Sequence record: MT782071.1 | Strand: one strand, 5' to 3' | DNA length: 64,000 nt | Source: Escherichia phage JN02 | Shown: piece by piece, positions 4,158 through 7,815 of the stretch | How the letters are laid out: each line of letters starts with the position of its first letter | Position numbering within the stretch: the stretch's first letter is position 1 | Notes under the pieces: model-generated | What the model saw: the letters and a program-made list of their open reading frames with translations, nothing else | Databases searched by the model: none | What the model was told of the DNA's origin: nothing | Translations under genes and position numbers: made by a program

Positions 4158-4358
4158 TTATTTTGACATTTCTTCGATGTCACGACGATACCCATCACGA
4201 ACTTCACGAAGAGCTTCAAGGCCACACATAGGCTCGATACCAGTAATGTGAACTTGATTAATCTGATACTCTACATCTTCTAACTGAGCGAAAACATAAC
4301 GACGTTCTGCTGCACAACCAGGTTTAGCTTTACCGAAACGTTTATTCAAAGTAGTCAT
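4158..4358 (-). CDS. Hypothetical protein, about 66 aa
   Basis: ORF track 4158..4376; internal Met (MTTLNKRF) has GGAG Shine-Dalgarno 8 nt upstream. Confidence 0.45.
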   Translation of the reverse strand: MTTLNKRFGKAKPGCAAERRYVFAQLEDVEYQINQVHITGIEPMCGLEALREVRDGYRRDIEEMSK

Positions 4359-4396
4359 TTTTATATCTCCATTCACTCATTTGTTTTGATAGGTCT

Positions 4397-4426
4397 ATAG
4401 TATCAACAACTACAGACCTTGTAAAC
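4397..4426 (-). promoter_or_regulatory. Early promoter cassette (-35 GTTTAC, -10 TACTAT)
   Basis: Minus-strand GTTTAC-N18-TACTAT; ggtctatag / ctacagacc inverted repeat. Confidence 0.5.
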
Positions 4427-4438
4427 TGTTTTGTGAAA

Positions 4439-5395
4439 TTATTTGAAAGGTTTTACCATATGGAAATTTTGTTTGAAACGTTTTACGTAATCGTTGTGTC
4501 CTAAGCTTTGGTACATACTTACAACTTTGCTGTAGTTTTCCCAGGCGTATTCACGGAACCAACCGGAGGTGATGCTTGTGCAGACTTTTTCTAATGCCAT
4601 CATGAAACTGGCTTCAGGGTTAATTTCAAAGTTATTAGGAATCTGAGAACGTTCTAACGCTAGTACACATGATTCTTCGTATACACCGGCCAATTTGACC
4701 ATTTCTGGTAATGATTCGAACTTCTCGCGTGAGGTCATGACTTCAGAACCATCTTTCATATAAAATGTATACGCTGGACGGTCTGTTAGCGCAATGGCTT
4801 CATGAATAGTATCATGGTCATATGTATAGATGTCATCTTTAAAGAACGCACTTTTAGAAGTGTCAAGAACTGGGTGAGCATAGTTCAAGGTTTCTTTCTG
4901 GCGTTTCAGCATAATTTCAGTAAGTTCATCGTTCAGTGTAACACCTTTACCACGAAGATACTGAATATGGTTCATAGTCTTTAAAAAGAATGGATTATTT
5001 TTCTTGAAACGATGAGACATCTTAATTGCAAGACATATCTCAGGAGTTGCCCAATAAAACCCGTTCAAACGGTCTTTAGTCAAATTTTTCTTGGCGTATT
5101 TTAAAAGGTCATAAGAAGACGTGAAATCTTCAGGAGTGAGTTCACCTACTAATTCACGGACATTAGTGATTGCCGGAACAATATATGCTTCAAAATGAGT
5201 TTCGCGTCCATTATGGAAGCATTTGAAAACTTGGACATCAGGGTTATCTTGATGAACATATACACCCATCATTTGATTTTTGAATGCATTCCAAGAACCT
5301 TGGTCTGCAATAAAGTCCCAGTCACTATTTTTGATAGCGTTAGAATCAATAAGACCGTGATAGTGAAGTGCACGAGAACCAATAACTAACATCAT
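4439..5395 (-). CDS. Hypothetical protein, 318 aa, with possible nucleotidyltransferase-like N-terminal motif
   Basis: ORF in track; N-terminal VIGSRALHYHG...SDWDF resembles the G[SG]...DxD signature of Pol-beta-like nucleotidyltransferases (weak, by eye only). Confidence 0.55.
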   Translation of the reverse strand: MMLVIGSRALHYHGLIDSNAIKNSDWDFIADQGSWNAFKNQMMGVYVHQDNPDVQVFKCFHNGRETHFEAYIVPAITNVRELVGELTPEDFTSSYDLLKYAKKNLTKDRLNGFYWATPEICLAIKMSHRFKKNNPFFLKTMNHIQYLRGKGVTLNDELTEIMLKRQKETLNYAHPVLDTSKSAFFKDDIYTYDHDTIHEAIALTDRPAYTFYMKDGSEVMTSREKFESLPEMVKLAGVYEESCVLALERSQIPNNFEINPEASFMMALEKVCTSITSGWFREYAWENYSKVVSMYQSLGHNDYVKRFKQNFHMVKPFK

Positions 5396-5423: not shown

Positions 5424-5663
5424 TTAAATTTCACGACATGCGATATTATATTCATCCCAGAGGTCATCATGTGAAGCCTCTACCAATGGAACGATTGTAC
5501 CATTTATGTCTTCATTATAAGGGCAAATTGTGCAGTGTGCATCTTCAAATCGGATGCCTTTGTGTTCAGATTTTTTATAACGCATATCGAATATCTTTGC
5601 AAACTTTTCACGAGTAACGGTTTTAGCAACCACTTCGGTTCCAATACTTTCGTAATAAATCAT
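5424..5663 (-). CDS. Hypothetical protein, 79 aa
   Basis: ORF in track; GGAG Shine-Dalgarno; early promoter immediately upstream. Confidence 0.5.
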   Translation of the reverse strand: MIYYESIGTEVVAKTVTREKFAKIFDMRYKKSEHKGIRFEDAHCTICPYNEDINGTIVPLVEASHDDLWDEYNIACREI

Positions 5664-5691
5664 TGTGGACTCCGTTTAATTTGATAGGACT

Positions 5692-5721
5692 ACTATAACA
5701 TAGTCCTATCTTGTTGTAAAC
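5692..5721 (-). promoter_or_regulatory. Early promoter cassette (-35 GTTTAC, -10 TATAGT) with perfect 9-bp inverted repeat around the -10
   Basis: gataggact...tatagt...agtcctatc. Confidence 0.55.
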
Positions 5722-5725
5722 TGTT

Positions 5726-5923
5726 TTAGCAAGAATAACTAGATGATACCCAGCCTTGAACAGTGATACTATTGTTGGATAATGATATCGCGTTCTGGAG
5801 ATTCAGACCTGCGTTATCTTCAATCCATAATGTAACTTCTTCGCGTTCTTCTGTTGCAATTTGGAACAGGTTTTCCAGGGCAGCTACTGCCGTACGTACA
5901 GCACAATCTAATTCACGAGACAT
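5726..5923 (-). CDS. Hypothetical small protein, 65 aa, paralog family member (C-terminus GWVSSSYSC)
   Basis: ORF in track; shares C-terminal motif with the two upstream ORFs. Confidence 0.5.
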   Translation of the reverse strand: MSRELDCAVRTAVAALENLFQIATEEREEVTLWIEDNAGLNLQNAISLSNNSITVQGWVSSSYSC

Positions 5924-5932
5924 ATGATTTCC

Positions 5933-6205
5933 TTAGCAAGTGTGAGAAGATGCAATCCAACCACCAGTTTCGAGGCTCAGGTTGTAGTCGTATTGGTAAA
6001 CGTCGGCCCATTCAGCATAGCCGTTTTTTGTACAACGTTCAAGATCGGCTTTAAGCTGTCCGGGTGAATGATAAGTTCCACCCATACCATAAGCTGGATA
6101 CAAGTCGAATGTTGTGTTTTGTTTATCAGCGATTTCTTTGGCAGCCTCAATAGCTGCATAGATTTTTGCTACAGCTTCAGCCAGTTCGGTTTGTTCTTTA
6201 GACAT
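5933..6205 (-). CDS. Hypothetical small protein, 90 aa, paralog (C-terminus GGWIASSHTC)
   Basis: ORF in track. Confidence 0.55.
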   Translation of the reverse strand: MSKEQTELAEAVAKIYAAIEAAKEIADKQNTTFDLYPAYGMGGTYHSPGQLKADLERCTKNGYAEWADVYQYDYNLSLETGGWIASSHTC

Positions 6206-6214
6206 AATGATTCC

Positions 6215-6520
6215 TTAGCACAAAGCAGAAGACGAAACCCAAGCACCTTCAGTAATAACGTAACCATTACCTTCACGCTTAACATCGCCACCATTATTTT
6301 CAATTTCATTTTTCATCCACTGGGATACGATTTCACCCTTAGGATAATAAGTACGACCGCTACCATAATCACCTACAGAAAATGATACGGCATATTGGTC
6401 TGCGATCTTTGTTGCTTCTTCTTCGATACGTTCAGCTTGATTCAGAAGTTTATAAATTGCATCTGAAGCGGATTTGGCATCGTTAAACTCTGGTACTTTA
6501 ATTTCAATAATCTTACTCAT
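6215..6520 (-). CDS. Hypothetical small protein, 101 aa, paralog (C-terminus GAWVSSSALC)
   Basis: ORF in track; start overlaps upstream stop (ATGA). Confidence 0.55.
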   Translation of the reverse strand: MSKIIEIKVPEFNDAKSASDAIYKLLNQAERIEEEATKIADQYAVSFSVGDYGSGRTYYPKGEIVSQWMKNEIENNGGDVKREGNGYVITEGAWVSSSALC

Positions 6521-6876
6521 TTTCTACATTCCTTAATAAAGTTTTCGATTGTTTCATTTTCACGTTTAGCTAGAAGTTCATTATAACTAACCATTTGAGA
6601 AGCGTAAACCTTTTTATTTTTCTTGTTATGGTTTATAAAATCGTAGTAAAAATAGACTACAGTACAAAATGATGCGATGGATGCAAAGGCTTGGGTATAC
6701 CGTAAGTCCTGCCATTGGTCTGTGAATCCATCGGTGTTCCCTATAAATCCTAACACAACGCCGTCAATAAGAAATCCAACTAATCCAAAGGCAAATCCCA
6801 TGCCAATACTCATAATAAAAATTAGAATGTTCTCACCAAGAGAAGGCCGTACGGTTAAGAGTTGAGGCTTTTGCAT
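6517..6876 (-). CDS. Hypothetical membrane protein, 119 aa, C-terminus ...ENFIKECRK
   Basis: ORF in track; hydrophobic segments; shared C-terminal motif. Confidence 0.55.
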   Translation of the reverse strand: MQKPQLLTVRPSLGENILIFIMSIGMGFAFGLVGFLIDGVVLGFIGNTDGFTDQWQDLRYTQAFASIASFCTVVYFYYDFINHNKKNKKVYASQMVSYNELLAKRENETIENFIKECRK

Positions 6877-7250
6877 CTTATTTCCTTAACGAATTCCATA
6901 GCTTCTTCGTATTCATACTTTTTAACAGCTTCATTATACTGAGCTTGGGCTTTTGCGCACTGAACTTTCCATTCTCTTAATCGGGCTCTGTGATGACGTC
7001 CTTGGTACCAATATCCTACCCAATTAATAGGCATTAATAAAAACGGTACAATAAGTGGTGCGACGAACATTAATGAAAATGTTGCGTCAGACGATATAAC
7101 TTCACTAGAATCTAAAACAGCTCCTATAATCATAAAGATTAAAAATGCTAAAGCTAAAATAGGGCCAAATAGTACTTCGTTTGGGATTAATTTACGCTTG
7201 TATTCATATGCCCAGGGCTTACTTGGCATGTACAGGGTTGGCTTTGACAT
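6855..7250 (-). CDS. Hypothetical membrane protein, about 131 aa (start uncertain), C-terminus ...EFVKEIRCKSLNS
   Basis: ORF track 6855..7280; start probably an internal Met to avoid long overlap with the upstream gene. Confidence 0.45.
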   Translation of the reverse strand: MSKPTLYMPSKPWAYEYKRKLIPNEVLFGPILALAFLIFMIIGAVLDSSEVISSDATFSLMFVAPLIVPFLLMPINWVGYWYQGRHHRARLREWKVQCAKAQAQYNEAVKKYEYEEAMEFVKEIRCKSLNS

Positions 7251-7815
7251 ATTCTCTACATTCCATAATAAATTGCTCAAGGATTAAATTGTTAGTGAAA
7301 TTAGGACTAACAACCATAGTTTCATAAAGCGCATCAATAGCACTTAAAGCATCAACTCTTTTAAGCAAAGGCTTGCCTTCATACATAGTTTCAGAATCGA
7401 TGATTAACGTAAAGTAATATTTTTTATTATCGACTAGAACTTCTGTATCGATATAAAACATATTAGACCTCAGAAGCTTATCTCTAAAACCATAATAATC
7501 TTCAGAGCGTTCGCTGATATATTCCAATTCAGTGTTTAAACAACAAACAGACCACGTAGGAGCAACGAAATCAGTGAATCTAATATCATGGTCTGCAACT
7601 AGTTTAGCAATAGCTCCGATATCATGAATCATAATACCTGGGGCTAATAAAGATTTTCGGTTATTTGCATATTCAGTTGTCTCATAAGAAGACGACCAGT
7701 ACCATTTACGTCCAGTTGCAACATATCGTAATGAATCAACTAAAGACGTAGGTGGATTTACCTTATTTCGGAACTCTTCGAACATTGAGTCAATATCATT
7801 ATTTTGGTTTCGCAT
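7219..7815 (-). CDS. Hypothetical protein, about 198 aa, containing ...EQFIMECREY... near the C-terminus
   Basis: ORF track 7219..7836; Met at 7815 has GGAG Shine-Dalgarno 6 nt upstream. Confidence 0.5.
   Translation of the reverse strand: MRNQNNDIDSMFEEFRNKVNPPTSLVDSLRYVATGRKWYWSSSYETTEYANNRKSLLAPGIMIHDIGAIAKLVADHDIRFTDFVAPTWSVCCLNTELEYISERSEDYYGFRDKLLRSNMFYIDTEVLVDNKKYYFTLIIDSETMYEGKPLLKRVDALSAIDALYETMVVSPNFTNNLILEQFIMECREYVKANPVHAK

Follow-up and report, generated by a model that had tools for sequence, protein, structure and literature searches.

In the MntA-HepT system, a minimal nucleotidyltransferase (MNT) polyadenylylates its partner protein, and the catalytic motif of MntA is GSX10DXD (PMC7641770). 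Described here is a phage locus with the same basic layout, a two-gene module of a putative enzyme with a GS-x(n)-DxD motif and an adjacent small protein partner. It was analysed in a stretch of 64,000 nucleotides (the window) from Escherichia phage JN02 (MT782071.1). Between positions 5,726 and 6,520 the minus strand of the window carries three consecutive open reading frames (ORFs) of 65, 90 and 101 amino acids (aa). As the initial annotation of this DNA had reported, their C-termini are similar, reading GWVSSSYSC, GWIASSHTC and AWVSSSALC, respectively. The annotation was also right to group the three genes, but it overlooked their context: about 330 bp downstream lies a gene for a protein with the domains DUF7277 and DUF7275, and this gene is a near-obligate companion of such small proteins.

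It is proposed that the triplet and the DUF7277-DUF7275 protein, a putative enzyme of 318 aa (referred to below as the enzyme), form the two halves of a conserved module of two genes that is restricted to phages. The small proteins are acidic alpha/beta proteins with variable bodies, whose one universal feature is a C-terminal tail of the form W-x-S-S-S-x-x-C or the shorter W-x-P-S-S-C. A functional link between the triplet and the DUF7277-DUF7275 protein is very probable. The window proteins already belong to PHROG 899, PHROG 4882, DUF7277 and DUF7275, which exist as separate families with no assigned function. The four genes are arranged as follows.

6215..6520, minus strand: small tail protein 1, 101 aa, RB69ORF139c/138c type, phrog_899, with a YGSGRTYYPKG hairpin and the end GAWVSSSALC
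5933..6205, minus strand: small tail protein 2, 90 aa, RB69ORF137c type, phrog_899, with a YGMGGTYHSPG hairpin and the end GGWIASSHTC
5726..5923, minus strand: small tail protein 3, 65 aa, RB69ORF136c type, phrog_4882, without a YG hairpin, with the end QGWVSSSYSC
4439..5395, minus strand: partner enzyme-like protein, 318 aa, RB69ORF134c type, with DUF7277 at residues 2-101 and DUF7275 at residues 120-305

Linkage of the small proteins to the DUF7277-DUF7275 gene

The pairing was followed from both of its sides. The forward set consisted of 25 viral contigs fetched by the YG motif of the small protein, plus Bp7. A homologue of the window ORF 4439-5395 follows on the same strand, no more than about 1.7 kb downstream, at all 26 loci; the set takes in small proteins that are only 31-35% identical, as well as a jumbo-phage contig of 371 kb. 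The reverse set comprised 80 viral contigs and five contigs of metagenome-assembled genomes (MAGs), fetched by the enzyme's own motifs, and 78 of these 85 loci have one to six tail-motif ORFs directly upstream of the enzyme gene and on its strand. Among the misses, one locus (L114) has the variant tail ...WESSESSEC, the upstream ORF of another (L034) contains a WSDSGC unit internally but lacks a Cys tail, and a third (L059) appears frameshifted. When the proteins of the 85 loci were clustered all against all, the enzyme and the small proteins were the only families common across loci and no third conserved gene emerged. Nor was a fusion of a small protein to the enzyme seen.

The gene pairing is found in T4-like phages, Phapecoctavirus, Otagovirus and jumbo-phage contigs. 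Intact modules, each with three small proteins, occur in phage groups that are not related to one another: Acinetobacter phage AM101 (Twarogvirinae), Pseudomonas phage COT4 (Otagovirus, 98 kb) and Escherichia phage nieznany (Phapecoctavirus). Eight look-ups of randomly chosen distant members of the small-protein family gave six informative contexts. In four of these (L129, L130, L134 and L135-137) the enzyme gene is just downstream; in the remaining two, a 305-kb phage (L131) and a 3-kb contig (L139), no enzyme was detected within the DNA at hand.

The enzyme is encoded in 733 of about 50,700 phage records. In a set of one genome per species, covering 185,579 species of bacteria and archaea, only five loci encode it, all of them on MAG contigs (one of 167 kb). 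The two-gene module is restricted to phages. Actinophages possess a shorter enzyme homologue (248-263 aa) that retains GS-x14-DxD, for example Streptomyces phage Muntaha (L121, 2851-3893) and Gordonia phage ClubL (L122, 2809-3890). Immediately downstream of the homologue, both of these phages encode a protein of about 97 aa; by eye the two proteins appear related, and they may represent an alternative partner.

The C-terminal tail and the small-protein family

Within the 64-kb window, no further ORF ends in the tail motif. Of the 2289 same-strand ORFs upstream of the enzyme at the collected loci, 223 end in a loose form of the tail pattern, compared with 2 of 9199 other ORFs, and the tail similarity is therefore not due to chance. 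Among 193 unique tails, collected from the loci and chosen for ending in Cys, Trp occupies position -7 in 144 and position -5 in 44, and Ser is dominant at -5 to -3. A few family members have one or two residues beyond the tail Cys. Across 100 distinct DNA tails, Ser is encoded by each of its six codons and Cys by each of its two, and each of the three stop codons occurs, so the constraint acts on the protein and not on the DNA. Extra internal W-x-S-S-x-C units, placed in acidic linkers, are found in 14 of 152 representatives.

The wider family was collected by a profile search of 1.84 billion cluster representatives with a cut-off of E 1e-3. It contains 171 proteins, nearly all of 73-120 aa, in which the match reaches the last residue. 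These 171 representatives at 50% identity retain the tail, and their C-termini are strikingly uniform. One of the profile matches, an 821-aa repeat protein (P0060), was judged spurious.

The possibility that the similar ends arose by chance, or from a constraint at the DNA or RNA level such as ribosome-binding sites for translational coupling, was considered. The two 9-nt spacers within the triplet read TAAGGA...ATG, and in two genes the stop codon lies within the TAAGGA Shine-Dalgarno sequence of the next gene, as such a constraint would have it. Every synonymous codon is nevertheless used at the conserved positions, and the explanation was rejected on codon usage together with the background rate of the motif and the 171 tail-bearing representatives; it is scarcely credible. 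The initial annotation had pointed to just this explanation should the similarity prove limited to a few residues. For the 65-aa protein it is so limited, but the tail is a family-wide hallmark at the protein level and not the product of chance or nucleotide constraint.

The relationship between the three window proteins is uneven. The 90-aa and 101-aa proteins match the phrog_899 profile with E-values of 1.9e-18 and 1.8e-22, both match the hidden Markov model (HMM) of the family at about 1e-23 over almost their full length, and a pairwise blastp comparison of the two gives 8.6e-7. The YG-x-G-x-T-Y hairpin motif and the tail are common to both, and by sequence comparison the case for true paralogy is solid. 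The 65-aa protein has no phrog_899 match and belongs to phrog_4882 (1.7e-36); it aligns with the family over its last 12 residues only (hhalign probability 88.7; family HMM E 0.057). The N-terminal helix that had been ascribed to all three proteins is therefore shown for the two longer ones, the 65-aa protein matching over the tail only. In the structure model of the 101-aa protein, which has a predicted local distance difference test score (pLDDT) of 90.7, the helix spans residues 15-43, and the tail (residues 93-100) is modelled as a structured strand and short helix with a pLDDT of about 88.

A fourth type of small protein is found in Dhakavirus, Karamvirus and others. It is 74-77 aa long, ends in W-x-P-S-S-C and contains an internal DWLNSSC, and its N-terminal helix-strand region aligns with the family. 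All four types are alike in position, size, acidity (isoelectric point, pI, 4.1-4.7) and tail, and the median pI of the family is 4.5. The only feature that unites the phrog_899, 65-aa and W-x-P-S-S-C types is the tail. Searches for the small-protein fold returned no match in PDB, NCBIfam had no match for the small proteins, and the PADLOC models of anti-phage defence gave only noise (E 0.01).

A recent local duplication of the triplet is not supported by its distribution. Separate orthologues of all three types occur in several genera (Dhakavirus, Krischvirus, Karamvirus, Jiaodavirus and others), where their order is usually kept, and the array is therefore older than these genera. Judged by these orthologues, the genes were duplicated long ago and the array has been conserved from genus to genus, not freshly expanded in place. 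Between Mosigvirus and Dhakavirus the bodies of the small proteins are 55-63% identical, compared with 75% for the enzyme, and the number of tail-motif ORFs per array ranges from one to six. A role in an arms race is plausible in view of this copy number and the fast-diverging bodies.

Two further observations concern variation within close relatives. At the 90-aa gene, near-identical Mosigviruses fall into two allele classes, with at least 94% identity in most and about 77% in the LF82 phage series (74% in P0016), which suggests allelic replacement at this position. In RB69 (NC_004928; L004 3001-3307) a frameshift divides the 101-aa gene between RB69ORF139c (71 aa) and ORF138c (33 aa), and tblastn finds it in two pieces with 92.8% identity. 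Either the laboratory strain carries a pseudogene here or the sequence contains an error.

The absence of a T4 counterpart, claimed earlier, was upheld: there is no significant HMM match for either gene in 150 of the 169 kb of T4 (the whole genome apart from positions 100001-118999, which hold late structural genes), and a T4 counterpart of the small proteins or of the enzyme was rejected on these grounds. The best T4 match is Tk.1 (62 aa; L005 10346-10534), at E 0.011 and over the YG-hairpin region only. The gene tk.1 is the first of three tandem small ORFs, tk.1-tk.3; the aligned helix-strand-YG-hairpin part of its product reads LSFEISSEYGDAETYY, and the protein has no Cys tail. Tk.1 may be a tail-less distant relative of the family.

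The putative enzyme and competing explanations

Against Pfam, the 318-aa protein scores 265 bits for DUF7275 (about 190 aa) and 97 bits for the N-terminal DUF7277 (about 100 aa), where the cut-off is 27 bits for each. Both domains are matched by all 11 of the diverse homologues tested. In an 11-sequence alignment (38-75% identity) G6, S7, D25, D27 and E69 are invariant or nearly so, as are the motifs KMSHR, R-x-KET-x-x-Y-x-HP, YDHDxIH, PAY, VLALER and KVCTSITSGWFREYAWEN. So many invariant polar residues are, at the level of the alignment, the conservation pattern of an enzyme. GS-x(10-20)-DxD is found in 80 of 82 unique enzyme sequences and the other two have ExD; the later Glu, E69, is invariant. 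GS...DxD followed by a later Glu is a hallmark of nucleotidyltransferases of the Pol-beta type, and the catalytic pattern hG[GS] ... [DE]x[DE] ... [DE] of the Pol-beta-type (MNT-like) enzymes is present here. In two Acinetobacter phage genomes the depositors labelled the enzyme a "putative nucleotidyltransferase". Pfam gave no match to NTP_transf_2, Polbeta or RlaP for the enzyme or the 11 homologues, and NCBIfam and PADLOC gave nothing for the enzyme beyond the DUFs. In hhalign comparisons with AadA, which had beforehand been confirmed as a nucleotidyltransferase by Pfam, and with RlaP (NrdC.11 in T4), the best local match, which is not significant, falls on the DxD strand and is in register.

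One enzyme acting on many proteins through a shared C-terminal handle is the simplest model, because the genes are linked, the tail is the sole common feature and the bodies diverge faster. The tail would serve the single enzyme as a handle for recognising all members of the array and, most likely, for modifying them covalently, and the variable bodies would supply different activities or targets in early infection. The terminal Cys, the three hydroxyl residues and the occasional internal repeats suggest, as far as sequence goes, a reactive site over a mere docking peptide. In such a model the two partners would interact physically, the tail would be the site of action and the chemistry presumably that of a nucleotidyltransferase; early expression and a role against the host or its defences would go with it. 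The chances are about even that the tail is a handle or modification site, and the overall reading, a two-part module whose enzyme recognises or modifies the common tail, is held to be about as probable as its negation. The fuller version is tentative and somewhat unlikely: a phage-specific protein-modification system in which the enzyme activates or marks an array of effectors through the W-x-S-S-S-x-x-Cys tag, by nucleotidylylation or by a new chemistry at the terminal Cys. The narrowest guess is that the enzyme would nucleotidylylate a tail Ser or Cys, much as MntA adenylylates HepT. It is made because the N-terminal domain has the G-S ... D-x-D ... E pattern of Pol-beta-type nucleotidyltransferases, and that the enzyme performs this reaction is distinctly doubtful.

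Several observations weigh against the two-part module with a modified tail. An enzyme clade (L077-L079, L105) has no recognisable Cys-tailed ORF within 2.5 kb upstream, the jumbo phage L131 encodes a small family member with no enzyme within 4 kb, the actinophage enzyme homologues have no Cys-tailed proteins nearby, and the 101-aa gene is frameshifted in RB69. The assignment to the nucleotidyltransferases stands on a short motif, Pfam yielding DUFs only. PDB searches with the single sequence, the full profile and the N-domain profile of the enzyme found no match; hhalign comparisons with AadA and with a seven-sequence RlaP alignment were not significant (E 0.05-0.07, probability about 1%); and the AlphaFold model made from the single enzyme sequence, with a pLDDT of 36, was set aside as unusable. 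The tail of the 101-aa protein is folded and not floppy in its confident model, which argues against a simple free-tail substrate. Interaction between enzyme and small proteins, and modification of the latter, are both inferred from gene linkage and sequence.

The main rival, which fits the same data nearly as well, takes the small proteins to be regulatory, inhibitory or specificity subunits, in which the tail docks and the body directs or restrains the enzyme on RNA, a host protein or a nucleotide. The linkage data suit this regulator or adaptor equally, several bodies per enzyme would yield several specificities, and the tail is structured and packed in the model, as a docking element would be. 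A strictly terminal Cys with a run of hydroxyl residues looks more like a reactive site than a pure docking peptide, however, and the internal unit repeats in 14 of 152 representatives suit multiple modification sites better than a single docking tail; such a subunit role is considered unlikely, although it is the most serious of the alternatives. The small proteins could also be independent inhibitors for early host takeover or anti-defence, with the tail binding a host factor and the enzyme merely co-inherited in an accessory island. Their small size, acidity (pI 4.1-4.7) and varying copy number would suit this, as would their place in early-gene accessory regions beside known or putative counter-defence genes. 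This is improbable: the pairing persists across phage groups with no other gene common to the loci, a single conserved host target is unlikely when the hosts span Enterobacteria, Acinetobacter, Pseudomonas and Aeromonas, and hitch-hiking would not preserve adjacency, strand and order.

An even lower probability is given to a pathway like those of ribosomally synthesised and post-translationally modified peptides (RiPPs), or to a scaffold-peptide pathway, in which a folded N-terminal leader or scaffold would carry a W-x-S-S-S-x-x-C end that is processed (Ser dehydration, thioether or Cys chemistry) and released. Several precursor-like genes do lie upstream of one enzyme, the Ser-rich segment with its terminal Cys recalls the substrates of lanthionine or aminovinyl-cysteine formation, and some members have repeated S-S-x-C units. 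Yet among eight neighbouring proteins Pfam detected no LanB/C/M/KC/L, YcaO, radical S-adenosylmethionine (SAM) or HFCD maturase, no protease or exporter was seen, and the loci share no third gene. Systems with several precursors keep the leader and vary the core, the reverse of this family. The tail, moreover, belongs to a domain that is confidently folded in the model, and the hosts of these genes are lytic phages.

Genomic setting of the module

The 1.9 kb around the triplet are 97-99% identical to the Mosigvirus genomes HX01, GADS24, APCEc01 and JK42 and to other RB69-type T4-like coliphages, and the window is from a Mosigvirus (an RB69/HX01-type T4-like phage). In annotated relatives the triplet appears as "hypothetical proteins", equivalent to RB69ORF139c/138c, 137c and 136c. 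It is flanked by an e.3 homologue on one side and by RB69ORF135c and 134c on the other; relative to T4, the block is inserted between e.3 and e.2. Packing is tight and operon-like, with the e.3 stop overlapping the start of the 101-aa ORF (ATGA). Three further features belong to the locus.

6580..6608, minus strand: promoter-like site TTTACG-17-TATAAT inside e.3, upstream of the array, a consensus match only
5683..5710, no strand assigned: hairpin with a 10-bp stem between the array and the next gene, with no T-run after it on the minus (coding) strand
5424..5663, minus strand: intervening 79-aa ORF, RB69ORF135c type, phrog_3723, containing HCTICPY and lacking the tail motif

In phage SA79RD, the site equivalent to 6580-6608 is annotated as a T4-type middle promoter and the one equivalent to 5683-5710 as a rho-independent terminator. 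The type of the 79-aa ORF is confined to some T4-like genera and lies outside the universal module.

The annotation of this region in public records is uneven. The e.4 homologue (window 6855-7280) is labelled "sulfurtransferase" in JK42, yet the window copy has no Pfam match. In a few records "tail completion protein", "major capsid protein" or "baseplate hub subunit" is the label given to a small protein or to the enzyme. Records in which the annotation of the e.4, small-protein and enzyme region looks unreliable include MK962756, NC_018855, PP693301, MK295203 and others.

In various phages the module lies near genes for NUDIX, NAMPT, an Acb2/Tad1-hairpin protein, a putative ADP-ribosyltransferase, Sir2 and anti-sigma factors. 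These neighbours are weak evidence that the module sits in early accessory or counter-defence regions. In a metagenomic contig (SRR16308653_113242; L134 692-1048) a 118-aa Acb2_Tad1_hairpin (Pfam) protein is encoded between two Cys-tailed proteins and the enzyme. The Acb2_Tad1_hairpin family comprises sponges that act against Thoeris and against the cyclic oligonucleotide-based anti-phage signalling system (CBASS). At another locus (L130 186-3535) the module adjoins NUDIX, NAMPT/NAPRTase and PTH2 genes and resembles the neighbourhood of phage nicotinamide adenine dinucleotide (NAD) reconstitution. In AM101 (L118), a gene annotated as putative ADP-ribosyl transferase (4183-4497) is found two genes downstream of the enzyme.

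Comparison with known systems

Literature and database searches turned up nothing that describes the tail motif, relates the small-protein families to each other or mentions the gene pairing or such a module, and no relevant paper was found on RB69ORF134c/136c/137c/139c, phrog_899, DUF7275 or DUF7277. The module falls outside the known kinds tested (MNT/HEPN, RiPP clusters, ubiquitin-like and sulfur carriers, PADLOC families). A structure of the enzyme could recast it as a variant of the protein-modifying nucleotidyltransferase systems.

MntA-HepT is a precedent for such an enzyme modifying its neighbour on a hydroxyl side chain. Unlike in MNT/HEPN pairs, the partner here is not a HEPN ribonuclease: R-x4-6-H is absent from the triplet and is found in only 8 of 152 representatives, and there is no Pfam HEPN match. 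The phage enzyme also has one to six partners, always upstream, and it resides in lytic phages and almost never in cellular genomes. It further differs from MntA in having the large conserved C-terminal DUF7275 and in showing no HMM-level likeness to NTP_transf_2. In layout, with about 100 aa in the N-terminal domain that carries GS...DxD and about 200 aa in the helical domain behind it, the enzyme recalls the kanamycin/AadA-type nucleotidyltransferases and phage RlaP. Those enzymes, however, use small molecules or RNA as substrates and lack a small-protein partner, and RlaP is a separate gene that coexists with the enzyme in the same phages.

RiPP clusters with several precursors per maturase, such as those of the prochlorosins, likewise have small genes with a short common motif beside one enzyme, and a Ser-rich stretch followed by a terminal Cys recalls aminovinyl-cysteine chemistry. 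In the phage family, by contrast, it is the C-terminal end that is conserved and the body that varies, and the proteins are predicted to fold as domains. With ubiquitin, ThiS, MoaD, Pup and the swinging-arm Cys of DsrC/TusE, the small proteins share an invariant extreme C-terminus, a length of 65-100 aa and a dedicated paired enzyme. They differ from ubiquitin-like proteins and sulfur carriers in that the combination of a beta-grasp fold, a C-terminal Gly-Gly and an E1-type partner was not found.

Even if the chemistry proves ordinary, three former orphan ORFs now belong, by their linkage, to a two-component system that can be tested. If the relation between enzyme and tag is real, it would be a new and very widespread functional unit of phage accessory genomes, and hundreds of "hypothetical proteins" of model and therapeutic phages (RB69, JS98, phAPEC8-like phages and the T4-likes of Acinetobacter and Aeromonas) would gain a common experimental handle. 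Further members can be searched for by the tail, a simple signature, and the variable bodies offer candidates for effectors directed at host processes or defence systems; the tag would then serve host takeover or counter-defence in many lytic phages that infect Gram-negative bacteria. A terminal-Cys tag with a new enzyme family may also be new biochemistry of practical use. The tag would in that case be a new kind of protein handle, with a logic comparable to that of ubiquitin-like and Pup tails or of RiPP recognition sequences.

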